From Elusimicrobiota bacterium (GTDB taxonomy: Bacteria; Elusimicrobiota; Elusimicrobia; UBA1565; UBA9628), in the NCBI GenBank assembly GCA_016182905.1, contig JACPFR010000044.1, positions 59,000 to 122,999 of the forward strand: DNA of 64,000 nt, written 5' to 3'. The notes under the pieces are model-generated. The model searched no databases and was not told the origin of the DNA. It was given only the letters and a program-made list of their open reading frames with translations. Of this stretch, positions 1 to 43,671 are shown in pieces. The position numbers and the translations under genes are program-made. The stretch's first letter is position 1. Each line of letters begins with the position of its first letter.

Positions 1-1332
1 AACGGGAGTTCTGTCGCTCTTGTCGACCTCCACCGTCTCGCCACCGAGACGGTGGACGTCGAAGGCTTTGGCGAAATCGTTCTTCACCGCATCGACTCCG
101 AAGTTCAAGATCGGACTTCCCAACTTCGCGGAATCACGTGGTGGGTGAAGGGGCGCATGGTGGGCGATCCCTCCTGGGAAGGCCTGGATGGTGAGGGCAA
201 CTACCTCGACGGCCGCACTACGCTCGCCAAGCGGTTCAGCTTCGTGGTCGAGGCGGACATCCTGAAGGACTCTGTGAAGGCTGACTGGGTGGCCTTCCGG
301 GCATCTCCGAAGGTCGAGGCGGTCCGCGAGGCGGTCCACACGCGCATCATCCATGCCCTGAACCTGGTTCAGGCCGAGAACAGGCGCGAGCGCAAGCGTG
401 CGACGCTCGCCCAACACCGCCAGCTCCTGGGCGAGTTGTCCATCACCTCGAAGCGCTACGTCGGGCAATTCATCGACGAGCTTCAGGAGAAATGTCCAAC
501 CATTTCGGAGAAGGATTTAGCCCGGACTGTCGAAATCTACGCGAAGATGGAACAGACCACCTCGGGCTACGACCTTTTGGGCCAGTTGGCTGCGTGTTCG
601 CCTGAGGACATCGACAAGTGGAACGGACTCATGAAGCAGTGGTCCGCGGGACACGCAGAGATTGTCCTTAACGAACTCGAGCGCCGCCTCAAGCTGATCG
701 CCAAGCTCCAGGATCTCGTTGAGACGGTGAAGACGGACGAGCTTCACGATCTCCAACCCTTGTTCGAGCGCGGGCTGTGGATGTTCGGCCCGGAATACGA
801 GGCGGTCGACTTCCACTCCAATCGAGGCCTGGCGACCATCGTCCGGGAATCCCTCGGAGGTACCACCAAGAACGTCGGTCGCGGCCGCCCTGATTTTGTG
901 GCTCTCCCGGAACGATCTATTGGCGTCTACGCGGCCGCCTCGTTTGGGCAAGACGGAGAGGTTTCAGGCGTCCGGAAGATCTTGATCGTTGAGTTGAAGA
1001 AAGGTGGCTTCGACTTGAAGCAGGGTGAGGTCGATCAGGCAAAGCGCTACGCCAAGGCGCTCCGCAAGGCCGGTGACGTGACTGCCGGGACCGTCATCAG
1101 CGCCATCGTTTTGGGCGCTACGATGGAAGCTGATCTGGACCCGGAGAAGATCGGCGATGCCACGTTCATCGAGCCCATGCTCTACCGTACGTTGCTCACC
1201 AGAGCTCACCAGCGCACCTTCAACCTTCAAAAGCGCCTGGAGGCTTCGGGTGCCAAGAGGCCTGTAGACACCGACGTCGAGTCGGTTCTCGAAGAAAAGG
1301 AGCTGCCCCTCAAAGACTCTGTTCGGGCCTAA
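1..1332 (+). CDS. 5'-truncated protein with C-terminal PD-(D/E)xK-like nuclease motif (possible defence nuclease, Shedu/DUF4263-like?)
   Basis: Frame 1 is open from base 1, so the gene continues upstream of the window. C-terminal GRPDFVAL...QDGEVSGVRKILIVELKKG fits a D-x13-E-x-K restriction-endonuclease-like motif. The gene sits beside the AbiE pair and a tRNA. Confidence 0.55.
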   Translation, partial: NGSSVALVDLHRLATETVDVEGFGEIVLHRIDSEVQDRTSQLRGITWWVKGRMVGDPSWEGLDGEGNYLDGRTTLAKRFSFVVEADILKDSVKADWVAFRASPKVEAVREAVHTRIIHALNLVQAENRRERKRATLAQHRQLLGELSITSKRYVGQFIDELQEKCPTISEKDLARTVEIYAKMEQTTSGYDLLGQLAACSPEDIDKWNGLMKQWSAGHAEIVLNELERRLKLIAKLQDLVETVKTDELHDLQPLFERGLWMFGPEYEAVDFHSNRGLATIVRESLGGTTKNVGRGRPDFVALPERSIGVYAAASFGQDGEVSGVRKILIVELKKGGFDLKQGEVDQAKRYAKALRKAGDVTAGTVISAIVLGATMEADLDPEKIGDATFIEPMLYRTLLTRAHQRTFNLQKRLEASGAKRPVDTDVESVLEEKELPLKDSVRA

Positions 1333-1344
1333 CTTCCTTGTCCG

Positions 1345-1368
1345 TCGGGAAAACAACTCATTCCCGAC
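1345..1368 (+). other. Stem-loop (GTCGGGAA / TTCCCGAC) 13 nt after the stop of the first gene; no U-tract
   Basis: 8-bp perfect stem with 8-nt loop seen directly in the sequence. It is not followed by a T-run, so its function as an intrinsic terminator is uncertain. Confidence 0.25.
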
Positions 1369-1453
1369 AGGCCAGATCGCGCAGCCGTTCTTGACGGAGC
1401 CGATCGGTCAGAATTCCAGGGATTGCAGACCGAATCGGATCGAAACAAAAGGC

Positions 1454-1514
1454 TTGACATAATCATTGTCCAGATCAATAATACCTATAGATAGTTTTAT
1501 ATATAGGTATTATT
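1454..1514 (+). promoter_or_regulatory. Promoter (TTGACA-17-AATAAT) overlapping a 13-bp perfect inverted repeat AATAATACCTATA-N12-TATAGGTATTATT; candidate AbiEi autoregulatory operator
   Basis: TTGACA at 1454-1459 and AATAAT at 1477-1482. Inverted-repeat arms at 1477-1489 and 1502-1514 end 4 nt before the abiEi ATG. AbiEi proteins are known to autorepress via inverted repeats in their promoter. Confidence 0.6.
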
Positions 1515-1518
1515 ATCC

Positions 1519-2121
1519 ATGCCCCGAGAATTCACCCGCCAACTCGACATCTTCAAAGCACACCGCGGCGGACTTCATTCGTCCGAAGCCATGCGCCTGG
1601 GAATCCATCCCAGGGCTCTTTATGCCATGCGCGACGCCGGGCTCATTGAAAGGCTCGGCCGCGGACTCTACCGATTCGCAAAAGCTCCCCCGCTCTCAAA
1701 TCCCGATCTGGTCACGGTTGCCCTCAGGGTCCCCAAAGGCATCGTCTGCCTGATCTCCGCGCTCTCCTTCCACGACATCACGACTCAGGTTCCGCATGCG
1801 GTCCATATCGCCCTGCCCTTCGGCACGGAGCGGCCGCGGCTCGATTCCCCTCCTACGCGTTTCTCTTGGTTCAAAGAGCCCGCCTATGGCAGCGGCGCCG
1901 AGACGCACAAGATCGACGGCGTCCACATCCGCGTCTACTCACCGGAGAAGACGGTGGCCGACTGCTTCAAGTTCCGCAACAAGATCGGCCTCGATGTGGC
2001 GCTCGAGGCACTGAAGCTGTGCCTCAAGAAGAAGCGCTCCAAGCCGGATGAACTGCTGAAGTACGCCCGCATCTGCCGCGTCGAGAAAGTCATGCGCCCC
2101 TACCTCGAGGCCCTGCTGTGA
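1519..2121 (+). CDS. abiEi: AbiEi-type antitoxin / transcriptional regulator of a type IV toxin-antitoxin (abortive infection) system
   Basis: 200-aa protein with AbiEi_4-like N-terminal wHTH region (HSSEAMRLGIHPRALYAMRDAGLIERLGRGLYRF). It overlaps the downstream nucleotidyltransferase gene by 4 bp. Confidence 0.8.
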   Translation: MPREFTRQLDIFKAHRGGLHSSEAMRLGIHPRALYAMRDAGLIERLGRGLYRFAKAPPLSNPDLVTVALRVPKGIVCLISALSFHDITTQVPHAVHIALPFGTERPRLDSPPTRFSWFKEPAYGSGAETHKIDGVHIRVYSPEKTVADCFKFRNKIGLDVALEALKLCLKKKRSKPDELLKYARICRVEKVMRPYLEALL

Positions 2122-3029
2122 AAAAACCGCTCAAGAACGTTGCCGCGTCAGTCCGGCAAAAACTCGCCAACCTCGCAAAAGAATCGAAGCGCCCGTTCGC
2201 CGAAATCCTTCAGTACTATGCGATGGAGCGGTTCCTTTATCGGCTCAGCCGGTCGGAATACAAGGATCGCCTCGTGCTCAAGGGCGCGCTGATGTTCGTC
2301 GCCTGGGGCACCCCGCGCTCGCGCGCCACCAAGGATATAGACCTCCTGGCGCGGACGGAAAATTCGATCGCGAATTTGGTGAAAGTCATCCAAGACATCT
2401 GCCGCATCGAAATCGAAACGGACGGAATCGTATTCGATCCGGCGCTCGTGAAGGGCGAGAAGATCAAAGAGGACGTGGATTATGAGGGCGTCCGGCTTCT
2501 ATTCCAGGGGAAGCTGGAACAAGCCCGTATTCATATGCAGATCGACGTCGGCTTCGGCGACAGCGTGACTCCGGCGCCGGCCGCGATCGACTACCCCGTG
2601 ATCCTCGATCTGCCCGCGCCGAAGCTCAAGGGCTACCCGCCGGAGACGGTGGTCGCGGAGAAGTTCGAGGCCATGGTCAAGCTCGGCATGATCAACACCC
2701 GAATGAAGGACTTCTATGATCTTTGGCTGCTGAGTCGTCAGTTCGACTTCGACGGCGAAACGCTGGCCGAGGCGATCCGGACGACCTTCGCGCACCGCGG
2801 CACGACTCTCACGCCAACGCCCACGGCGTTCACGTCCGCGTTCCACGAGGAGAAGCAGCCGCAATGGCGCGCGTTCCTTTCGCGCACGGGCCTCACCGGC
2901 GCGCCGGAGTCGCTCAAGGAGACTATCGCTCCCATCAAAGAATTCCTCATCCCAATCGCTGAGGCAGGCATGGTGGACCGAAAATTCTCCATGCGCTGGG
3001 CGACGCTGGGACCGTGGAAAGCCAAATGA
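2118..3029 (+). CDS. abiEii: AbiEii-type toxin, nucleotidyltransferase (DUF1814)
   Basis: 303 aa. N-terminal nucleotidyltransferase-fold motifs (GALMFVAWGTPRSRATKDIDLL). ATGA/GTGA start-stop overlap with abiEi. Confidence 0.8.
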   Translation: MKKPLKNVAASVRQKLANLAKESKRPFAEILQYYAMERFLYRLSRSEYKDRLVLKGALMFVAWGTPRSRATKDIDLLARTENSIANLVKVIQDICRIEIETDGIVFDPALVKGEKIKEDVDYEGVRLLFQGKLEQARIHMQIDVGFGDSVTPAPAAIDYPVILDLPAPKLKGYPPETVVAEKFEAMVKLGMINTRMKDFYDLWLLSRQFDFDGETLAEAIRTTFAHRGTTLTPTPTAFTSAFHEEKQPQWRAFLSRTGLTGAPESLKETIAPIKEFLIPIAEAGMVDRKFSMRWATLGPWKAK

Positions 3030-3063
3030 CATCCGGTCTCCCGGACTGGCCTACACGTCGATA

Positions 3064-3093
3064 TTGCGAACAACGCGCTAAAACTGGCATAAT
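3064..3093 (+). promoter_or_regulatory. Sigma70-like promoter TTGCGA-18-CATAAT upstream of tRNA-Phe
   Basis: Hexamers at 3064-3069 and 3088-3093. Followed by a 10-bp direct repeat ATCTCGACAA x2 (3121-3142) before the tRNA. Confidence 0.3.
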
Positions 3094-3211
3094 CGCCCGT
3101 CGGCATCCGATTTCCGTTTCATCTCGACAAGGATCTCGACAAAAATTCGGCGGAAGAGGCCCGATTCGGGTCGTGACGGGTCGAAATTCTGCTGAGATTT
3201 TTTATAGATTC

Positions 3212-3286
3212 GGCGGGGTAGCTCAGTGGTAGAGCACCGGTCTGAAAAACCGGGTGTCGACAGTTCGATCCTGTCCCCCGCCACCA
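3212..3286 (+). tRNA. tRNA-Phe: tRNA-Phe (anticodon GAA), CCA encoded
   Basis: GGCGGGG acceptor stem pairing with CCCCGCC. D-arm TAGCTCAGTGGTAGAGC. Anticodon loop CTGAAAA with GAA at positions 34-36. T-arm GTTCGATCC. 3' CCA present. Confidence 0.9.
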
Positions 3287-3725: not shown

Positions 3726-4639
3726 AGACGGAAGGGGATCGCCTTCGGAAGGACCTCGAACACGACGGGCGCCGTCCCGTCCGCGTCCCCGTCGATGTTG
3801 AGCGGCAGGGGCTCCTCGGAGTGTATCTCGACGCGGCGCGCGCGCCGCAGGACGACGCCGGGACGGCCGGCGTGTCCGCCCGAATACGCCCGGGGCAGCA
3901 GCGACATCAGCTCCGGACGCGTCATGTCGCCGATCGTGAGCAGGTCGAGCAGCCCGTCCTCCGCGTCCGCCTGCGGGGCGAGCCTCATGCCCCCGCCGAA
4001 GGTGCTCGTGTTGGCCGCGGCCACGAGGTGGTAGCGCGCCGCCGGCTCCGCGACGCCGTCGACCGTGAGGCGCATGCTCCGCGCCTTCGCCGTCGCCACG
4101 GACAGCACGCCCTCGACGAGATAGGTCAAGGTGCCGCCGAGGAACTTACCGCGCGCGGCCACGGACAGCGCCACGTCGCCGGGCAGCCCGAGCGCCGCGA
4201 CGTTGAGGAAGTGCCGGGAGCGCGGCGCGCCGTCCGCCGCGCGGAAGGTCGCGCGCCCCGCGTCGAGGCGCCGGCGCTTGCCCTCGGCGAAAGCCTTGGC
4301 CCATGCCTCGGGCTCTCGCGGCACGCCCATGTGATTGGCGAAGTCGCAGCCCGACCCGGCGGGGAAGGTCGCGAGGACCGTGTTGCGGCGCACATGCTCG
4401 GGCACCGCGAGGAAGCCGTCGACGACCTCGCCGAGGGTGCCGTCGCCGCCGACCGCGACGATGAGCTCCATGCCGTCCGCCGTCGCCTGCCGCGTCAGCT
4501 CCCGCCCGTGCCCCGGCTTCTCGGTGCGCGCCAGCTCCAGGTCCGGGAAAAGGTCCTTGGCGAGCGCGCGGGCCCTGTCCCAGCGCCCCCCCGCCCGCCC
4601 GTGCCCCGCCGCCGGATTGACTATGAACAGCGTTCTCAT
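3722..4639 (-). CDS. Diacylglycerol-kinase catalytic-domain family lipid kinase (YegS/BmrU-like)
   Basis: MRTLFIVNPAAGHGRA ... IVAVGGDGTLGEVVDG is the DAGK_cat signature. 305 aa. Confidence 0.8.
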   Translation of the reverse strand: MRTLFIVNPAAGHGRAGGRWDRARALAKDLFPDLELARTEKPGHGRELTRQATADGMELIVAVGGDGTLGEVVDGFLAVPEHVRRNTVLATFPAGSGCDFANHMGVPREPEAWAKAFAEGKRRRLDAGRATFRAADGAPRSRHFLNVAALGLPGDVALSVAARGKFLGGTLTYLVEGVLSVATAKARSMRLTVDGVAEPAARYHLVAAANTSTFGGGMRLAPQADAEDGLLDLLTIGDMTRPELMSLLPRAYSGGHAGRPGVVLRRARRVEIHSEEPLPLNIDGDADGTAPVVFEVLPKAIPFRL

Positions 4640-4771
4640 CGTTGCCGGTTATTTTACGATGTTTGAGTCAGGGGGGCGGCGGGATGATGTCCGGAGGGGC
4701 TTGGGGTTGACGCGGCCATCTCGCCGCCCCTCCCCGCGCCGACAAAGTGGAAATAACGGTAAGACTGACAC

Positions 4772-4815
4772 CAAAAAAGAACCGCCCCGACCGGGAGGGG
4801 TACCGGTCGGGGCGG
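4772..4815 (-). terminator. Rho-independent terminator downstream of subtilisin gene 1
   Basis: On the minus strand a 13-bp perfect stem CCGCCCCGACCGG / CCGGTCGGGGCGG with an 8-nt loop is followed by TTCTTTTTTGG. Confidence 0.7.
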
Positions 4816-4832
4816 GAAACGGGGCGGGAGGC

Positions 4833-6113
<1,281 letters not shown>

Positions 6114-6182
6114 TTTGTTCTCCCCTTAGCTCCGTTGAGGGGACCCGGAGCGGGTCTTTCGTCTGCGCCTATTATGGGCGGA

Positions 6183-6290
6183 AGGCCTACTTCCGCCCTG
6201 AGGCATAAGGCCTAGCACCGTCTAGGCCTAAAGGCCTATGCCCTAGGTCCTACGTCTCGAACGCGTAGGCCCTCTTCCTGGGTCCTAACG
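6183..6290. repeat. Array of short AGGCCTA / palindromic TAGGCCTA motifs (4 perfect, 3 degenerate copies) between the two S8 genes
   Basis: AGGCCTA at 6184, 6208, 6224 and 6232. Variants AGGTCCTA, TAGGCCC and GGTCCTA follow. The same motif recurs at 7569-7575 and 7607-7613, upstream of the second S8 gene. Confidence 0.6.
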
Positions 6291-7502
6291 AACGAGCTTG
6301 GCCGCGTCCACGACGCCGGCGCCCTGCTCGGACGCGGAAAGTCCGGGAACCTTGACGGCCGCGCGGCGCAGCGCCGCGCGGACGGCGGCTTCGCCGTGAG
6401 CGCCGCGGGCGACCGCGAGGGCGCCCAGGCCCGCCATGTGGGGCGTCGCCATCGACGTCCCCGCGTAGTTGTCGTAGCCGCCGCCGGGGACCGAGGACTT
6501 CACGTCCACGCCCGGCGCGATGAAGGCGACCTGATTGCCGCGGCTGGAGAATTTGGCGATCGTCTCGTTCGGGGCGAGCGCGGAGACCGTGATCGCCTCG
6601 GGATACGCGCCCGGGTAGTTGACCGAGCCGCCGTCGTTGCCCGCGGCCGCGAACACGGCCACGCCGCGCACCGTCGCGTACTTGAGGGCGGCGCGCATGA
6701 AGATCGTGCCCATCGGGGCGCCGAGGCTCATGTTGGCGACGTCCATCTTGTTGTTGCCGCACCAGATCAGGCCCTTGATGATGGAGGTGAGCCCGCCCGC
6801 CCCGTCCTTGTCGAGGACCTTGACCGCGTACAGGCGCGCCTTCGGGGCCACGCCGACGACGCCCTGGCCGTTGAGGACGCCCGCGATCGTGCCGGCGACG
6901 TGCGAGCCGTGAGCGTTGTCGTCCATCGGCGGCTTCTTCGGATCGAGCGCGTTGTAGCCTCCGGCGCAGTTGGCCTTGAGGTCGGGATGGCCGCAGTCGA
7001 TGCCGGTGTCGATGACCGCGACCTTCACGCCCTCGCCCTTCGTGACGGCCCAGGCGGCGGGAGCGTCGACCCGGGCGATGCCCCACGGGACCTCGGCGGC
7101 GTCCACGCCCGCCGGAAGCGGGAAGACGGGGCGCGCCGGCGGAGCGGCGACGGCGGGAAGGGCGGCGCGGACGGACTCATAAGAAGGAAAGGGCGCGTGG
7201 AAGACGGGGGCCTCGAGCAGCCAGTTCCTATATATGTCCTCCTGCACCTCGAGGACCTCGGGCATGGCGGCGGCCTTCTCGGCGAAGGCCGAGAACATCT
7301 TGGCCTCGGGGAGCAGGGCGACGAGCGCGCCGATCTCGGAGAGATCGTCGGCCTTGGTCGCGCCGAGCTCGCGCAGGGCGGCCTCGCGCTGGGCGGGGGT
7401 CGTGCCGTCCCTGAACGCGATCAGATAGCGCTTGGCGCCCGCGGCGGACGCGCACACCGGCAGCAGCACGGCGAGAATCGACAACGCGATCAGTTTTTTC
7501 AT
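6285..7502 (-). CDS. Secreted subtilisin-like serine protease (peptidase S8), paralog of 4833..6113
   Basis: Start placed at MKKLIALSILAVLL with AGGAGG ribosome-binding site. The longer 691-aa ORF is an upstream extension. Motifs VAVIDTGIDCGHPDL, HGSHVAGTIAG, GTSMATPHMAG. Confidence 0.88.
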   Translation of the reverse strand: MKKLIALSILAVLLPVCASAAGAKRYLIAFRDGTTPAQREAALRELGATKADDLSEIGALVALLPEAKMFSAFAEKAAAMPEVLEVQEDIYRNWLLEAPVFHAPFPSYESVRAALPAVAAPPARPVFPLPAGVDAAEVPWGIARVDAPAAWAVTKGEGVKVAVIDTGIDCGHPDLKANCAGGYNALDPKKPPMDDNAHGSHVAGTIAGVLNGQGVVGVAPKARLYAVKVLDKDGAGGLTSIIKGLIWCGNNKMDVANMSLGAPMGTIFMRAALKYATVRGVAVFAAAGNDGGSVNYPGAYPEAITVSALAPNETIAKFSSRGNQVAFIAPGVDVKSSVPGGGYDNYAGTSMATPHMAGLGALAVARGAHGEAAVRAALRRAAVKVPGLSASEQGAGVVDAAKLVR

Positions 7503-7629
7503 GACTCCTCTAAACGTCGTCTCAGAAGTACCGTCGACGATTCCGAATCTAGCATACTCCGGTCCGAAAGGCCTAGTCGAATTTGGGTCCAATAGGTCAC
7601 TATTTTTAGGCCCTCCGTCCCGGGCCGTA

Positions 7630-7658
7630 TTGACGCCGTCGCGGACGCGGTCTATACT
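7630..7658 (+). promoter_or_regulatory. Sigma70-like promoter TTGACG-17-TATACT ending 6 nt before the ATG at 7665 (predicted leaderless mRNA)
   Basis: Hexamers at 7630-7635 and 7653-7658. The ATG lies 7 nt downstream of the -10 element and no Shine-Dalgarno sequence is possible. Confidence 0.45.
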
Positions 7659-7664
7659 GACCTG

Positions 7665-8387
7665 ATGATCGAATACCTCGCCGCGCTCTCGCTCCTCGCC
7701 GTCGCCGCGCCCGCCCTCGCCCAGCCCGCCGCCGATCCGCCGCTCGTGGACGCCGTCAAGGCGGGAGACGCCGCGGGCCTGAAGGCGCGCCTCGCCGCGG
7801 GAGCGGACCTCGGGGCCAAGGACGCCCACGGCTGGACCGCGGTGATGTGGGCCGCGGGGCACGCCGACGGGGCGACGCTGAAGGCCTTGCTGGACGCGGG
7901 GGCGGACCCCGCGCCGAAGGACGAGCCCGGCTGGTCGGCGATCGTCGAGGCCGCGAAGGGCGGCAAGGCGGCGAACGTCGCCCTGCTCGCCGCGAAAGGC
8001 CTCGACTGCTCGGCCAAGGACTCCGCCGGGGTCCCCGCGCTCGCCTACGCGGCGGCGGTCTCGACGCCGGCCGTCTCGGCCCTGCTCGCGTGCAAGGCCA
8101 AGGTCGACGCGCGCGACTCGAACGGGCTCACGGCGCTGACCCGCGCCGCCCAGCTCGGCCGCGCCGCCGCGGCGGGCCGGCTCATCGCGGCCGGCGCCAA
8201 GGTCGACGCGAAGGACGCCCTCGGCTACACCGCCTTGATGTGGGCCGCCCACGGCGGCTGGACCGACACGGTGAAGACGCTCCTCGCGGCGAAGGCGGAT
8301 CCGAAGCTGAAGAGCGGCGACGGTCTGACGGCGCGGGAGCTCGCCCTCAAGCGCGGCCACGCCGCGGCCGCGGACCTCCTGGAATAG
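7665..8387 (+). CDS. Secreted ankyrin-repeat protein
   Basis: Signal peptide MIEYLAALSLLAVAAPALA. Roughly six ANK repeats (GWTAVMWAAGHADGATLKALLDAGADP, GYTALMWAAHGGWTDTVKTLLAAKADP and others). Confidence 0.8.
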   Translation: MIEYLAALSLLAVAAPALAQPAADPPLVDAVKAGDAAGLKARLAAGADLGAKDAHGWTAVMWAAGHADGATLKALLDAGADPAPKDEPGWSAIVEAAKGGKAANVALLAAKGLDCSAKDSAGVPALAYAAAVSTPAVSALLACKAKVDARDSNGLTALTRAAQLGRAAAAGRLIAAGAKVDAKDALGYTALMWAAHGGWTDTVKTLLAAKADPKLKSGDGLTARELALKRGHAAAADLLE

Positions 8388-27512: not shown

Positions 27513-30330
<2,818 letters not shown>

Positions 30331-30344
<14 letters not shown>

Positions 30345-31854: not shown

Positions 31855-31932
31855 ATGACTAAATTAGCATTTAGCAATAAGTCCGACAATGACCGCGGCC
31901 ACCGCCCGCGACGGCGCCGGATTCGCCGTTTT

Positions 31933-31946
31933 ATGACCATGGTCAT
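31933..31946. promoter_or_regulatory. 14-bp perfect palindrome ATGACCATGGTCAT in the divergent gcvT / 31999-gene intergenic region
   Basis: Seen directly in the sequence, centred on CCATGG. Lies in the gcvT 5' leader on the minus strand. No glycine riboswitch consensus was found here. Confidence 0.35.
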
Positions 31947-31998
31947 GGTCGAGGCGCGGGCAGGGCCTTCATACTAACGAGAAGCGAACAGGAGAACC

Positions 31999-33159
31999 AT
32001 GAACTCGAATCCCTCCGTTTCGGCCCCGGCGCGCGCGATCGGAAGCCTGCTGCTGGCGCTGGCGCCGTTCGCGCCGCCGGCGGCGGCCCAAAGCACGCGC
32101 CATTACGAGGCCGCCGACCCGAACGCGTCCGGCGAGGACGCGAAGGCGTCGCCGGCCCCTGCCGCCGCGGCGTCGCGTCCGGCCCGCTCGGCCCCTCGCG
32201 TCTTTCGCGTCGTCCGGCCCGGAGGCATCCACGCCGAGGCGAACGTGGAGAGTTCGGCCCCGGTCATGGGCGAAGTCGAAGCCGTCGTCGGAGCCGGCAT
32301 CGGTACCGGCGCGAAGGACAAGAGCCCCGGCGCCAATCCCGCGAGGCGCTACTGGGGCGGCTCGAACGGGGCCTCGACCGCTCCCGCGAAGCCGATCACG
32401 TCCTCCGGTCCCAGCGGCCCGGCGAAGCCGCCCAAACAAGGGATCCGCGTCGTCGACGACAAGAAGAACCCGATCGCCTCGGGCTCGTTCTTCGACACGC
32501 AGACCGTTTATTTCCAGATCTTCGGCTACGACGAGAAGGACACGTCCGTTTGCCTGGAGAGCCTGGTCATGAAGGGAGACCTATTAGGGGACTGCGCCGA
32601 TTTCGTGAAATTGCCCGACACGACTTACTCGATCAGCTACAACAACGGGAGATTCTCCTACGCCAACGGGATATGGGAAGCGAGGTACAAGAGCATCTAC
32701 TGGTACGACACGCTGCGCATCTCAGTGACCAACTCGAAGGGCGAGAAGTCGGTCAAAACGTTCCGTACCACCGGCTCGGAAACGCACCCCTCCGCGCTGG
32801 GCCGCCACTTCGTCGACGGCAAGGTCAAGAACTCGCCGTACAAGAGAGGGGAGATCGTCGAGGTCCATATTTTCGGATTCGACGAGAAGGACGCTTTTGT
32901 CTGCACGCAGATCCGCGACGACGCGACCCATGCCGACATCGCCGTCTGCTCTCCGTACGCCGATTTCAGCCGCTTCACGAAGCTGCCGGGCCAAAACTGG
33001 TCCTATCAAAACGGCGCTTGGGTCAAGAAATTCAACACCAACGACATGAGGCTGGATACGACCTATTACGTGCGCCTCAGGAACTCGAAGAACGCCGAGT
33101 ACGCGGACATGCTGCAGTTGATGAGCCACCCCCCCGGCTTCGTCGTGGGGCCGAACTAG
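31999..33159 (+). CDS. Secreted protein with two tandem copies of a roughly 70-aa Cys-containing domain; C-terminal half in a low-GC segment
   Basis: Signal peptide present. Internal repeat: FFDTQTVYFQIFGYDEKDTSVCLE...LPDTTYSISYNNG versus IVEVHIFGFDEKDAFVCTQI...LPGQNWSYQNGAW. GC falls to roughly 55% over 32450-33160. Confidence 0.55.
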   Translation: MNSNPSVSAPARAIGSLLLALAPFAPPAAAQSTRHYEAADPNASGEDAKASPAPAAAASRPARSAPRVFRVVRPGGIHAEANVESSAPVMGEVEAVVGAGIGTGAKDKSPGANPARRYWGGSNGASTAPAKPITSSGPSGPAKPPKQGIRVVDDKKNPIASGSFFDTQTVYFQIFGYDEKDTSVCLESLVMKGDLLGDCADFVKLPDTTYSISYNNGRFSYANGIWEARYKSIYWYDTLRISVTNSKGEKSVKTFRTTGSETHPSALGRHFVDGKVKNSPYKRGEIVEVHIFGFDEKDAFVCTQIRDDATHADIAVCSPYADFSRFTKLPGQNWSYQNGAWVKKFNTNDMRLDTTYYVRLRNSKNAEYADMLQLMSHPPGFVVGPN

Positions 33160-33194
33160 CCGCGGCGAGGGGACATGGGCCGGGTTCCGGCGGC

Positions 33195-33506
33195 CTAGGA
33201 CTTCGCGAGGACGTCGAGGAGCACGCGCGCCAGGCGGCGGCGCTCCACCATGTCGTTCCAGCGCAGCTCGGCGAAGCGCGCGCCGTCGTCGTCGTCATAG
33301 GCGTGGTGCACGAGGGCGGGGATGAGCAGGCGCTCGCCGCCCAGCTCGAACTGGACGAGGACGGTCTCCCCCTTCGCGAGGCGGGCCGCGGTGGACAGCT
33401 CCGCCCCTCCGGCCGTTATCTTAAGGAGACGGCCCCAGGAATCCTGGCGCGCGGAGGAGCCCGGGAAGCGGAGCAGCGCCGGAACGAGGTAAGGGGCCCG
33501 CGTCAT
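33195..33506 (-). CDS. Small PilZ-like domain protein (putative c-di-GMP binding)
   Basis: 103 aa. RQDSWGRLLKITAGGAEL resembles the PilZ (D/N)xSxxG region. The RxxxR motif is not canonical. Confidence 0.4.
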   Translation of the reverse strand: MTRAPYLVPALLRFPGSSARQDSWGRLLKITAGGAELSTAARLAKGETVLVQFELGGERLLIPALVHHAYDDDDGARFAELRWNDMVERRRLARVLLDVLAKS

Positions 33507-34654
33507 CGCGGCTCCTCTTTATGCCGGACCAGACGCGCCGGACCCCGCCCGTCCTTCGCCTCGCCGACGGTCCAGAACCGCGCGCCGTCCCAGGAGACGC
33601 CGGTCGGGATGAAGTCGCCCTCGGCGTATTCGGGGAGCGGGAGGCCGTCGATGGGCTCCTCGGGGCGCTCCAGGGCGTAGCGCACGAGGCGGCGGTCGGC
33701 GGCGTCGAGCGTCCAGAGCGAACGGCCGTCGAAGACCAGGCCGGCGGGCTTCGAGCCGCGCCACCTGTAGGTCGCGAGCACGCTGAGCTCGCGGTCGACG
33801 AGGTGCTTGCGCAGGACCTTGGCGCGGGCGTCGAGCGTCCAGAGATAGAGGCCGTCGAAGGCGAGGCCCGCGCAGTTCGGCGCGGCCTTCGCGTACCGGG
33901 CGAGCGGGGTCATCTTGTCGTCGCGCATGCGGCGGATGACGGTGCCGTCGGCGGAGACCGTCCACATCGCCTCGGCGGTGAAGGCCGCGGCCACGGGCGT
34001 GTCCGCGGTCAGGTGGCGGACGACCCGGACGGCGGTGTCGTCCGGCGAGAGCGCGTAGAAGGATTGGGTGAACCACTCGACGAGCCACAGCGACTTGCCG
34101 TCGAAGGCGAGCCCGGCCGGATGGCGGACCGGGAGCTCCCAGCGGTCGACGCGGGCCGCGGCGGCGGCGCGGTTGGCCTCGACGCGCTTGAGCGAGGCGA
34201 CGCCGAGCCCTGCGGCCAGGAACAGGCCGACGGCCAGCGCGTACCAGATCGGCGAGCGGCTCAGGGGCGCGGCGCTCGCGACCGAGACGGCCGTGCCCTG
34301 GAAGCGCAGGCCCTTGGAGACCGAGGCCTTGAGGTCCTCGGGCGTCCACGGCGGGGCCACGACCTCGGCGGCGCCCACGCGCATCAGCGCCACGGCGCGG
34401 CTCGCGTCGCGCACCTTCAGCGCCACGACCACGGGCATGAGCGGGAAGGCGCGGAGCAGCTCGCGCGTCAGGCTCTCGGCGTCGGCCCCGCCCCCGTCGA
34501 CGAGCAGGAAGGCCTTCGTCTTGCGCTCGCGCGCGAACTCGAGCGCCTCCTCGAGGCGGCCGGCGCCCTCGGTCCGGTGGCCGAGCTCGCCGAGCATGAG
34601 CCCGAGGAGCTCCCGGTCCGCGGCTTCCTTCGCCAGCAATCCGATGGCGGCCAT
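33503..34654 (-). CDS. Membrane protein with N-terminal degenerate receiver-like domain, one transmembrane helix and C-terminal beta-propeller-like repeats (FDGxxLW)
   Basis: Pseudo-receiver: FLLVDGGG ... VVVALKV. TM helix IWYALAVGLFLAAGLGV. Repeats GLAFDGKSLWLVEW / GLAFDGLYLWTLD / GLVFDGRSLWTLD / GVSWDGARFWTVG. Confidence 0.55.
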   Translation of the reverse strand: MAAIGLLAKEAADRELLGLMLGELGHRTEGAGRLEEALEFARERKTKAFLLVDGGGADAESLTRELLRAFPLMPVVVALKVRDASRAVALMRVGAAEVVAPPWTPEDLKASVSKGLRFQGTAVSVASAAPLSRSPIWYALAVGLFLAAGLGVASLKRVEANRAAAAARVDRWELPVRHPAGLAFDGKSLWLVEWFTQSFYALSPDDTAVRVVRHLTADTPVAAAFTAEAMWTVSADGTVIRRMRDDKMTPLARYAKAAPNCAGLAFDGLYLWTLDARAKVLRKHLVDRELSVLATYRWRGSKPAGLVFDGRSLWTLDAADRRLVRYALERPEEPIDGLPLPEYAEGDFIPTGVSWDGARFWTVGEAKDGRGPARLVRHKEEPR

Positions 34655-34655
34655 G

Positions 34656-35996
34656 TCAGTTCGGCGCGGGGATCAGCAGCGAGGCGCCCTCGGCGGGCAG
34701 CCCGCGCTCGACCTTCTCCCGGTTCGCGTCGTAGATCTTCTCCCACAGGTTGGGGTCGCCGTAGTACTCCTTGGCCATCGTGCGCAAGGTGTCCCCGGCC
34801 TTCACCACGTGGCGCTTCGGCCACGCCGGCGGCGCCGGCCGCGCGCGGACCTTGATCTCGACGGGCTTCGGCCGGCCCATGAGGCCGGCGGCCTTCTCGG
34901 CGGCGCGGTAGTCGAGCTCGTCGTTGCGCTTGAGCAGGGCGCGGTACTCGTCCTGCGCCTCGGCCACGCGCTTCTCGAGCACGCGCAGCTGGCTCTCCGC
35001 CGCGGCTTTGTTGGTCTCGGCCGTGCCGGCCTGCTGGGACATCGTCTTCTGCTTCTGCTCGAGGTTCGAGAGATCCGTGCGCAGGGTCTCCGCCTGCGCG
35101 GCGGCCTGGCCGACGAACTGGCCGGTGAAGGACGGGGCGCCGAAGCGGTAGCTGAAGGTGGCCTGATAGCCGCCGCCGGAGCGGTTGAGGCCCGCGGTCG
35201 GCAGGGACATCGCGATGTCCAGGATCATCGGCGAGAAGTTCAGGCCGAGGCCGAACGCGAAGGTGCTCACCCCGTCGAGGTTCAGCCCCTTGCCGCCGCG
35301 CACGCGCAGCAGGCCCTGATGGAAGGTCGCCTCGACGCCGGGATAGAACTCCGCCAGGCCGCCGCGCACGCGGAAGTCGCCGGCGAAAGTGAGGCGGCGG
35401 CCCCAGGCGTACGCCGTCGCGAGCGTGATCGCCGGGCGGGGATACGCCAAGGAGGTGACGAAATCGCTGAGCACGATGCCCGCCGAGAGGCCCATGTTCG
35501 TGCGCGCGATCGCGCCGACGTCGAACCCGAGGCCGAACTTGCCGCCGCTGCCCGCGTCGGAGTTGACGATCTTGGCGTTGGCGCCGATCTTGAGGGGCTT
35601 CGAGAACGGGATCTGGCGGACCCGGTACTCCTGACTGTAGTTGAAGATCAGCGAGTCGATGTCGCCGCCGTTGCGCTGGCGCTCGAGGTGGTAGGCGGCG
35701 CCGATCGTGGCGGTGTTGATCGGCTCGTAGGGGCGCATGTAGGCGCCGGTGGCGAAGGACAACGGCCCCCGCGGCGACAGCATCCGGCCGATGGTGCCCG
35801 CGCCCTGCGTGTACGGGGTGTTCGCCGAGCCGGCGGGGTTGTAAAAAAGGCCGAACGCGTCGTCGGCGATCGCCGAATACGCGGTTCCCATGCCCATCGC
35901 CCTCGCGCCCGGCAGTACGTCGTTGTAAGCGACGGCTCCGGCGTCCGGAGCGGCCAGCGCGAGGACGAGGAGGAGCGCCAAAGCCCTTCTCGTCAT
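34656..35996 (-). CDS. Outer-membrane beta-barrel protein (FadL/PorV-like N-terminal NPA motif) with coiled-coil linker and C-terminal LysM domain
   Basis: Signal peptide present. GMGTAYSAIADDAFGLFYNPAG. C-terminal LysM HVVKAGDTLRTMAKEYYGDPNLWEKIYDAN. Confidence 0.6.
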   Translation of the reverse strand: MTRRALALLLVLALAAPDAGAVAYNDVLPGARAMGMGTAYSAIADDAFGLFYNPAGSANTPYTQGAGTIGRMLSPRGPLSFATGAYMRPYEPINTATIGAAYHLERQRNGGDIDSLIFNYSQEYRVRQIPFSKPLKIGANAKIVNSDAGSGGKFGLGFDVGAIARTNMGLSAGIVLSDFVTSLAYPRPAITLATAYAWGRRLTFAGDFRVRGGLAEFYPGVEATFHQGLLRVRGGKGLNLDGVSTFAFGLGLNFSPMILDIAMSLPTAGLNRSGGGYQATFSYRFGAPSFTGQFVGQAAAQAETLRTDLSNLEQKQKTMSQQAGTAETNKAAAESQLRVLEKRVAEAQDEYRALLKRNDELDYRAAEKAAGLMGRPKPVEIKVRARPAPPAWPKRHVVKAGDTLRTMAKEYYGDPNLWEKIYDANREKVERGLPAEGASLLIPAPN

Positions 35997-42315: not shown

Positions 42316-43671
42316 ATGGCGAAAAAACCCCTGATCCACTTCGTCGGCATCGGGGGCGCGGGCATGAGCGCGCTGGCGCAGATCCACGCCATGGACGGCG
42401 GCCCGGCGACGGGCTCCGACCGGGACTTCGACCGCGGGCGGGGCGCGGGGCTGAAGGCCAAGCTCGAGGCCCTCGGCGTGAAGCTGTTCCCGCAGGACGG
42501 CAGCGCGCTCACCGATGGAACGGAGCTCGTGGTGCTGTCCACCGCCATCGAGGACTCCAACCCCGAGATCGCCGCGGCCAAGGCCCGCGGCGTGCCCCTG
42601 ATGCACCGCTCCGAGTTCCTGGCCCGCCACGTGTCGGAGATGCGCACCATCGCGGTCACCGGCACGAGCGGCAAGTCCACCGTCGTCGCGATGATCTTCG
42701 AGATCCTCGAGGCCGCCGGGCGCGGGCCGTCCGTCATCACCGGCGGCGCGCTGATCGCGCTTCAGAAGCGCGGGCTCACCGGCAACGCCTTCCGCGGGAA
42801 GTCGGACATCCTCGTCGTCGAGGCGGACGAGAGCGACGGCTCCTTGGTCAATTACAAGCCGGCCGTCGGCGTGTTCCTCAACCTGACCAAGGATCACCTG
42901 GAGGTCTCCGCCCTGCGCGAGATCCTCCTCAAGTTCCGGCTCCACGTCGCGACGGCGCTGGTCAACGGGGACGACGCCGCGCTGGCCGGCATCCGCGCCG
43001 ACGCCACGTTCGGCTTGTCGTCCGGCTCCGTTCACGCCGAAGGCCTCGAGCTCGAGGCCGCCGGCTCTCGGTTCCGCGTGAAGGACGTCTCATTCGAGCT
43101 TCCCGTCCCCGGCCGTCACAACGCCGAGAACGCGATCGCCGCGATCGCGGCGTGCGTCAACGAAGGCGTCTCGCTGGCCGACTGCGCCCGGGGATTGGCC
43201 GGCTTCCAGGGCGTGACGCGCCGCTTCCAGAGTCTCGGCTCCGCGCGCGGGGTGGAGGTCGTCGACGACTTCGCGCACAATCCGGCGAAGATCGCGGCGA
43301 CCCTCACCGCCGCCCGCCTGCGCGGCCGCCGGACCTTGGCCGTCTATCAGCCCCACGGCTTCGCGCCGACCCGCCATCTCAAGAACGAGCTCATCGCGGC
43401 CTTCGCCGAGGGCCTGCGCCCCGAGGACCGGCTTTGGCTGCCCGACATCTACTACGTCGGCGGCACGGCGAGCAAGGACATCTCCTCGAACGACGTCGTC
43501 GCCCCGCTGAAGGCCAAGGGCCTTCACGCCTTCCACGTGCCCGACCGCGCCGCCATCGCCGCCCTGATCGCCGCCGAGGCGAAAGAGGGAGACCTCGTCA
43601 TCGTCATGGGCGCGCGCGACCCCTCCCTGTCCGACTTCGCCCGCGAGGTCCTCGCGGCCTTGCGTCCCTGA
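42316..43671 (+). CDS. Mur ligase (UDP-N-acetylmuramate--L-alanine ligase MurC-like or murein-peptide ligase Mpl)
   Basis: IHFVGIGGAGMSALAQ ... VTGTSGKSTVVAM ... DESDGS ... HNAENA. Stand-alone rather than inside a dcw cluster, and next to a peptidoglycan hydrolase. Confidence 0.8.
   Translation: MAKKPLIHFVGIGGAGMSALAQIHAMDGGPATGSDRDFDRGRGAGLKAKLEALGVKLFPQDGSALTDGTELVVLSTAIEDSNPEIAAAKARGVPLMHRSEFLARHVSEMRTIAVTGTSGKSTVVAMIFEILEAAGRGPSVITGGALIALQKRGLTGNAFRGKSDILVVEADESDGSLVNYKPAVGVFLNLTKDHLEVSALREILLKFRLHVATALVNGDDAALAGIRADATFGLSSGSVHAEGLELEAAGSRFRVKDVSFELPVPGRHNAENAIAAIAACVNEGVSLADCARGLAGFQGVTRRFQSLGSARGVEVVDDFAHNPAKIAATLTAARLRGRRTLAVYQPHGFAPTRHLKNELIAAFAEGLRPEDRLWLPDIYYVGGTASKDISSNDVVAPLKAKGLHAFHVPDRAAIAALIAAEAKEGDLVIVMGARDPSLSDFAREVLAALRP

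Follow-up and report, generated by a model that had tools for sequence, protein, structure and literature searches.

The described systems closest to the protein treated here are the bacterial immunoglobulin (Ig)-like (BIg) surface proteins (invasin/intimin and proteins with Big_2, IPT/TIG, or MG-type repeats), the polymorphic toxins and other families that combine a conserved N terminus with variable C termini, and the type V pilins (FimA/Mfa1) of Bacteroidota. The last reportedly have a two-beta-sandwich architecture of about 300 amino acids, lipoprotein precursors, and a conserved C-terminal segment. Here, we analyze a gene at positions 31999..33159 (+ strand) of a 64,000-nucleotide stretch of contig JACPFR010000044.1 (assembly GCA_016182905.1), referred to in its full length as the window, from a groundwater-type Elusimicrobia genome. 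The gene encodes a protein of 386 amino acids (the window protein), in which a putative signal peptide and a short N-terminal module (N-module) precede two repeats, each of which is predicted at good confidence to form a seven-stranded Ig-like beta-sandwich. In the reading that we favor, to which we assign a probability of roughly 0.55, the protein is exported to the envelope or surface, is not an enzyme, and acts as a binding module, its layout being that of a tether plus a head.

The likeness to BIg proteins lies in the predicted sandwich fold only. The window family falls into none of the Ig-like families of Pfam or NCBIfam (E<=10), is 7-13% identical to its structural matches, and has a distinct signature, G(F/Y)xExDTxxC ... 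C ... F.KLP ... WxYxNGxW ... NSKG, and a single Cys pair in each domain; moreover, the window protein lacks a beta-barrel anchor, an LPXTG motif, a type IX secretion system (T9SS) sorting domain, or any other known sorting domain. With polymorphic toxins and related families it has in common that the N-module is fused to unrelated C termini, in one locus in tandem paralogs. However, the N-module is short (about 80 amino acids), of low complexity, and unlike described trafficking domains, and it is not linked to any toxin domain, any immunity gene, or a dedicated secretion system. Compared with type V pilins, the likeness is one of architecture only: no sequence or structure match was found, the window protein has no lipobox, and no pilus genes are associated with it.

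A selected gene for two repeats of predicted Ig-like fold

The 386-codon open reading frame (ORF), which starts with ATG and is closed by a stop codon, is a real gene under selection, and a very rare one. Its frame shows the composition of coding DNA, with GC content at third codon positions (GC3, 0.87) exceeding that at first (GC1, 0.56) and second positions (GC2, 0.50), and the identical 386-residue protein was called on two independent metagenome contigs (SRR12113422 and SRR12113419). A Shine-Dalgarno-like AGGAG, read from the sequence, lies 4 nucleotides before the start codon (31990..31994, + strand). Between the homologs P0001 and P0002, the ratio of nonsynonymous to synonymous substitution rates (dN/dS) was 0.20 overall, indicating purifying selection, with values of 0.087 for the two-domain part and 0.41 for the N-terminal part. 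Both parts of the protein are constrained, the two-domain part strongly.

The sequence-only reading of this DNA had pointed out a clear internal repeat, built from a domain of roughly 70 amino acids. The repeat was borne out, as the two halves of the protein match by BLASTP (E 6e-07, in a single comparison) and alignments of domain 1 and domain 2 from eight family members match in hhalign with a probability of 99.4% (E 1.3e-21, 92 columns). Its length needed correction to about 110-125 amino acids. Domain 1 covers residues about 147-258 (32437..32772, + strand) with the Cys pair C185/C199, and domain 2 covers residues about 259-375 (32773..33123, + strand) with the invariant pair C302/C317, each supported by hhalign, AlphaFold (AF2), Foldseek, and a hidden Markov model (HMM). 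The motifs VYFQIFGYDEKDTSVC and VEVHIFGFDEKDAFVC and KLP..., cited in that reading, are present in the sequence; its second motif was out of register, and the homologous pair is RFSYANGIW in repeat 1 and NWSYQNGAW in repeat 2, TYSISYNN being an insertion restricted to high-GC family members. Over 16 domain copies, the signature reads (I/V)x(V/I)xG(F/Y)xExDTxxC ... C ... F.KLP ... WxYxNGxW ... (Y)R.x.xNSxG, with one Cys pair per domain kept in all of them.

The domain had been called unrecognized, and Pfam and NCBIfam, their Ig-like families included, indeed gave no match to the window protein even at E<=10. Five homologs had no match to described Ig-like families at E<=0.01, the PADLOC (defense) and PHROGs (phage) families had none to the protein, and a profile search of all PDB sequences returned only a chance match (E 0.73). 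A first AF2 model from three close sequences had a predicted local distance difference test (pLDDT) value of 51 and was not used for fold searches. On an alignment of eight sequences (A4), AF2 yielded a model with a pLDDT of 85.7 and a predicted template modeling score (pTM) of 0.75, comprising two domains, both all-beta and each with about seven strands, in which confidence was low only in a lineage-specific loop and over roughly the last dozen residues. Foldseek matches in the PDB were two-domain Ig tandems (NCAM Ig1-2, sDscam, invasin InvE, PD-L1, and Fab chains) at 7-12% identity, and those in BFVD were BIG2, IPT/TIG, and Ig proteins. Because the structural matches are generic Ig-like only and no Pfam or NCBIfam family matches, the repeats are, on this predicted model, an undescribed sequence family within the very common Ig-like sandwich fold. 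The AlphaFold and Foldseek part of the HHpred, Foldseek, or AlphaFold check once suggested for the domain has had a divided outcome, with no described sequence family found and the fold itself generic.

The protein ends in a conserved tail, SHPPGFVVGPN (33124..33156, + strand, from alignments), of which GFVVGP stands at or beside the extreme C terminus in six of the eight two-domain members, in both lineages. AF2 confidence over the tail is low (pLDDT 46-57), and the model suggests that GFVVGP is a linear motif outside the fold.

Distribution of the two-domain family

Only nine members of this extremely rare family were found, namely, the window protein, P0001, P0002, five lipoproteins, and P0012. 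Among 5.8 billion clustered proteins, full-length matches were found only for P0001 (55% identity) and P0002 (51%), both of the same architecture as the window protein. An exhaustive HMMER search with a two-domain profile gave 11 matches over 1.84 billion representatives, and a single-domain HMM confirmed P0001, P0004, P0005, P0007, P0008, P0010, and P0012. Two family-specific peptide patterns retrieved no relative from 185,579 species-representative genomes. The giant repeat proteins P0006, P0009, P0011, and P0013 were rejected as members, since the single-domain HMM misses all four; repeats of P0009 produced only summed sub-threshold matches to various sandwich families, and those of P0011 look like a different, N-rich repeat.

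The three members from high-GC contigs are the window protein, P0001, and P0002. The lipoproteins P0004, P0005, P0007, P0008, and P0010 (299-334 amino acids) consist of an FQNC lipobox (L/I-x-(F)-Q-N-C), a short linker, and two domains; identity of the window domains to low-GC homologs amounts to 27-37%. The contigs of P0008 and P0010 have 41-43% GC. P0004 is located on a contig of 42% GC (GCA_014378765.1, JACMNA010000032.1; locus L090), and the gcvT gene beside it is 54-58% identical to Pseudobdellovibrionaceae/Bdellovibrionales loci, an identity that is the sole ground for regarding the host as Bdellovibrionota-like. P0012, a protein of 1,221 amino acids from a contig of 45% GC, carries eight tandem copies of the domain behind a weak polysaccharide-lyase-like region. 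The gene of P0002 is found on a short contig (L004), where it directly follows the 3' end of a T2SSE-family (type II/IV secretion) ATPase gene (L004 5-448), which by eye we take to be CpaF/TadA-like. The literature on the FQNC lipobox and on Elusimicrobia secreted proteins yielded nothing relevant.

Export signal, N-terminal module, and proposed function

Residues 1-30 (31999..32088, + strand) end in ...ARAIGSLLLALAPFAPPAAA, followed by QS, and by inspection have the positive n-region, hydrophobic core, and A-x-A site of a Sec-type signal peptide with predicted cleavage between AAA and QS. The h-region and the A-x-A site followed by QS are kept in all seven proteins that have the N-module, and the conserved Cys pairs fit an oxidizing compartment. 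From this signal and the Cys pairs, the protein looks secreted, as had been proposed. It is not a lipoprotein; there is no lipobox, and the first Cys is residue 185.

The N-module makes up residues 31-111 of the mature protein (32089..32331, + strand), is rich in Ala, Pro, and Gly, and is encoded at 75% GC. Its motifs are, in order, QS(S/T)xRYEAxDPN, an acidic/Ala/Pro stretch, PRVFRVVRPG..AE.NVE, and GxGxKDKxPG. According to the alignment, a flexible Gly/Ser/Pro-rich linker follows (residues 112-146; 32332..32436, + strand), which is poly-Gly in homologs. The module is common to the window protein, P0001-P0003, and three genes of the metagenome contig Ga0255338_1001798 (L086), all on contigs of 66-69% GC, and in P0003 and the three L086 genes it is joined to C termini unrelated to the two-Ig unit. 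P0003 aligns over its N-terminal third only and has a Cys-rich C terminus of its own. The L086 genes, detected by a metagenome pattern scan, stand in tandem (4422-5927, 5935-7371, and 7393-8289) between lgt and a phosphoglucomutase gene; each encodes a signal peptide and the N-module, and their C-terminal regions differ, two of the three having in common a Cys-containing C-terminal motif of about 60 amino acids. Neither these genes nor P0003 matched the Ig-like domain HMM or Pfam. No further paralog of the N-module or the domain occurs in the window or in about 1 Mb of related loci. A search of the 5.8-billion-protein database with an N-module profile was uninformative, as it missed even the known members, probably because low-complexity words dominated candidate selection.

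We propose that the protein would be exported by the Sec pathway and cleaved between AAA and QS, after which the N-module would hold or target it at the envelope, doing for it what the lipid anchor does for the lipoprotein relatives. The working end would be the two Ig-like domains, stapled by disulfides and binding a ligand or a surface in the manner of an adhesin or receptor, and the GFVVGP tail might provide an additional interaction motif. The same two-domain unit also occurs behind a lipoprotein signal and linker on low-GC contigs and, in P0012, as eight copies.

Several points weigh against this proposal. The signal peptide was judged by eye only, and the fold assignment derives from a predicted model built on only eight sequences. 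The N-module is of low complexity, less constrained (dN/dS 0.41), and matches nothing known, and its role is one that we purely infer. There are no conserved partner genes, the neighbors being different in every locus. The Ig-like fold alone is no proof of adhesion; Ig-like domains also act as spacers, chaperone-like modules, or inhibitors. The proposal also leaves the final location between the periplasm, the outer surface, and the medium.

It is tempting to go further and to speculate, although we consider this scenario as a whole rather unlikely, that a small group of high-GC bacteria, probably Elusimicrobia, might use the N-module as a so far undescribed means of sorting or anchoring, with which they display interchangeable heads at the cell envelope. 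The gene would then be a case of leader capture, in which a two-Ig unit otherwise found on lipoproteins from low-GC contigs, at least one of them Bdellovibrionota-like, was captured across phyla and its lipid anchor was swapped for the N-module; GFVVGP would serve as a second interaction signal.

A conserved N-module with unrelated C termini in P0003 and the three tandem L086 paralogs, together with the accessory nature of a gene inserted on its own, would also fit a polymorphic secreted effector or toxin, in which the N-module is the delivery or targeting domain and the swappable two-domain C terminus the effector. We regard this as improbable. The C-terminal part is generic Ig-like and matched no toxin or enzyme in Pfam, NCBIfam, PADLOC, PHROGs, or the PDB. 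No immunity-like gene lies downstream, where the next gene is convergent and kept in relatives that lack the target gene. The two-domain unit is also found in ordinary small lipoproteins and in an eight-copy stalk, and the N-module, only about 80 amino acids in length, has no secretion system linked to it. The earlier conjecture of an adhesin- or toxin-like module is thus split: an adhesin is compatible with the fold and the eight-copy relative, as far as these let us infer a function, whereas a generic Ig sandwich without toxin or enzyme signature or immunity-like partner argues against a toxin.

Insertion next to gcvT and base composition

The gene resides in a single-gene insert of 1.28 kb (1,281 bases; 31914..33194, + strand), delimited by comparison of the junction with L027, L005, and seven other empty sites. 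The insert is flanked on one side by the conserved region upstream of gcvT and on the other by the stop codon of a conserved gene for a 103-amino-acid protein (p103), and contains only the gene described here and its upstream region. The gene order p446-p383-p103, followed by gcvT-gcvH-gcvP, is conserved in Elusimicrobia relatives. In GcvT, the window shares 97-98% identity with L005 (JACPOW010000107, groundwater) and L027, both metagenome-assembled genomes (MAGs) of Elusimicrobia/Elusimicrobiota, and 58-92% with about 35 further relatives, which places it in a high-GC member of that phylum. In nine relatives (L005, L027, L009, L012, L019, L029, L030, L039, and L041), only 25-111 bp separate the p103 stop from the gcvT start; compared with L027, the left homology ends in ...GCCGCCCGCGACG, with the p103 stop immediately after. 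Because the spacer is empty in nine relatives, including the two closest, acquisition is supported, and parsimony favors a gain of the gene in this lineage. In this respect, the suggestion of the sequence-only reading that the gene was horizontally acquired has held.

Other relatives carry unrelated inserts of 0.45-7 kb at the p103-gcvT junction, and this spacer is a variable spot across the phylum. No integrase, transposase, other mobility gene, or tRNA was found at the insertion site, and the insert ends carry only 7-bp matches, possibly by chance. The inserts compared with window positions 31855-33194 (L006, L008, L016, L017, L018, L021, L023, L026, L031, L032, and L035-L038) include, by eye, genes for secreted proteins and radical-SAM-like, ArsC-like, and HigA-like genes.

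The insert also contains a perfect 14-bp palindrome, ATGACCATGGTCAT (31933..31946), 52 bp upstream of the ATG, which a pattern count finds once in the window against a chance expectation of 0.03. It was not seen upstream of the homolog P0001. The palindrome may be a candidate operator, and we make no regulatory claim for it. On the gcvT side of the junction, an AT-rich motif (31855-31895; CTAAAnTAGCATTT on the + strand, AAATGCTAnTTTAG in the gcvT sense), within about 10-25 bp of the gcvT start, is kept in L005, L027, L009, L012, L019, L029, and L041 and probably represents the promoter of gcvT, followed by a very short leader. On the other side (33195-35996, - strand), the 103-, 383-, and 446-amino-acid genes, without a significant Pfam family and with their order kept in about 25 relatives, form a conserved envelope-related cluster. 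By eye, the 383-amino-acid protein has a receiver-like N terminus, a transmembrane segment, and a repeat-rich C terminus, and the 446-amino-acid protein combines a signal peptide and a coiled coil with a LysM-like end.

Foreign origin had also been suspected on grounds of base composition, from a high-GC, Ala/Pro-rich N-terminal third and a repeat-bearing part said to be the AT-richest coding sequence of the window. The first observation is correct, the N-terminal 145 codons having 75% GC. Codons 146-386 have 57.5% GC (GC1 0.47, GC2 0.39, and GC3 0.86; repeat 1, 55.3% GC) and are the lowest 241-codon stretch among the window genes, but by a narrow margin (0.575 versus 0.589 elsewhere). With host codon usage, the same amino acids predict 60.8% GC, compared with about 69% in the window, so that about 70% of the drop is amino-acid composition, the sequence being rich in D, S, K, V, T, F, Y, and N. 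GC3 is 0.865, compared with 0.934 expected, a deficit of 0.07 that lies about 2.9 standard deviations below host genes, within their range; for codons 146-386, it is at the 12th percentile of the host. P0001 and P0002, on contigs of 66-67% GC, show the same dip (61% GC, GC3 0.88-0.89). Because amino-acid composition explains about 70% of it and high-GC homologs share it, the GC dip characterizes the domain family and does not indicate recent low-GC import.

Recent transfer of the repeat part from a low-GC donor, to which the compositional argument had led, is accordingly very unlikely in our estimate. Apart from the GC3 deficit of roughly 2.9 standard deviations, it could appeal to the nearest two-domain relatives outside the high-GC group, which are on contigs of 41-43% GC, to the GC1 and GC2 values of the two-domain unit, which resemble those of low-GC homologs, and to the absence of the gene in close relatives. 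Against this, GC3 is high-GC-like and far from the 0.35-0.44 of the low-GC homologs, identity to these is only 27-37%, the GC3 deficit is equal in the 75%-GC N-terminal part (0.875), composition alone already predicts the lowered GC, and P0001 and P0002 combine the same architecture with the same dip. A low-GC origin, if there was one, would therefore lie far back, the recent donor being high-GC; the mild codon deviation and the synteny fit acquisition from another high-GC genome. The locus is a teaching case of a GC dip in a high-GC genome that is mostly amino-acid composition, the evidence of acquisition coming from synteny.

Other deviations in composition occur in the window. Within gcvP (27513-30344, - strand), positions 28600-29400 dip to 57-62% GC with GC3 of 0.76-0.80, below that of the target gene. 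Positions 1-3286 form a lower-GC segment (58-60% GC; GC3 0.76-0.79), in which GC3 over 1-3030 is much lower than in the repeat-bearing part of the target gene, and hold a 426-amino-acid ORF without a Pfam match (52-1332), an AbiEi antitoxin (1519-2121) and AbiEii toxin (2118-3029) pair, and, directly after it, tRNA-Phe (3212-3286); this looks like a tRNA-adjacent islet with a type IV toxin-antitoxin/abortive-infection module. A tRNA-Ser(gga) called by ARAGORN (42502-42588, - strand) inside a Mur-ligase ORF (42316-43671), with no Rfam call at the gathering threshold, is probably a false positive.

Remaining alternatives and significance

The conserved motif at the extreme C terminus, with its low model confidence, two beta-sandwich domains in about 300 amino acids, and the lipoprotein nature of the low-GC relatives would suit a fiber or pilus subunit that polymerizes by strand donation, of the chaperone-usher or the type V FimA/Mfa-like kind, with the GFVVGP tail completing the next sandwich. 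Considering the differences from type V pilins given above, we hold such a subunit to be highly unlikely.

A functional link to glycine cleavage, for instance co-regulation with gcvTHP, is barely credible. Two adjacencies speak for it: the window gene is the divergent neighbor of gcvT, and the gene of P0004, its closest lipoprotein homolog, precedes a bona fide gcvT by 60 bp, with the same orientation, in the Bdellovibrionota-like MAG. Against it, the nine Elusimicrobia relatives keep gcvTHP without the target gene, the 10 kb around each of four Bdellovibrionota gcvT loci contain no family member, neither a glycine riboswitch nor any other Rfam element was found near the gene, other family members have other neighbors, and it is not obvious what an exported Ig-like protein would do for an enzyme complex of the cytoplasm. 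The target gene is on the strand opposite gcvTHP and not co-oriented with it, and the two gcvT adjacencies (window and P0004/L090) may reflect chance or a hotspot upstream of gcvT. Between P0004 and gcvT, L090 carries an inverted repeat (2165-2240) with 13-bp arms, TGACATGCGAAAT...ATTTCGCATGTCA, the right arm of which extends over the start codon of gcvT; this repeat could act as a terminator or as a hairpin controlling translation.

Ig-like is the commonest extracellular fold, and the novelty of the protein is accordingly modest, with no new kind of system in view and no question of long standing opened up. The envelope biology of Elusimicrobia, however, is almost unknown. If the reading as a tethered binding module is right, the two repeats would define an undescribed Ig-like sequence family, recognizable by a clear signature and a single Cys pair in each domain, and the equally undescribed leader would mark a small, polymorphic group of secreted proteins from uncultivated bacteria that probably belong to Elusimicrobia.

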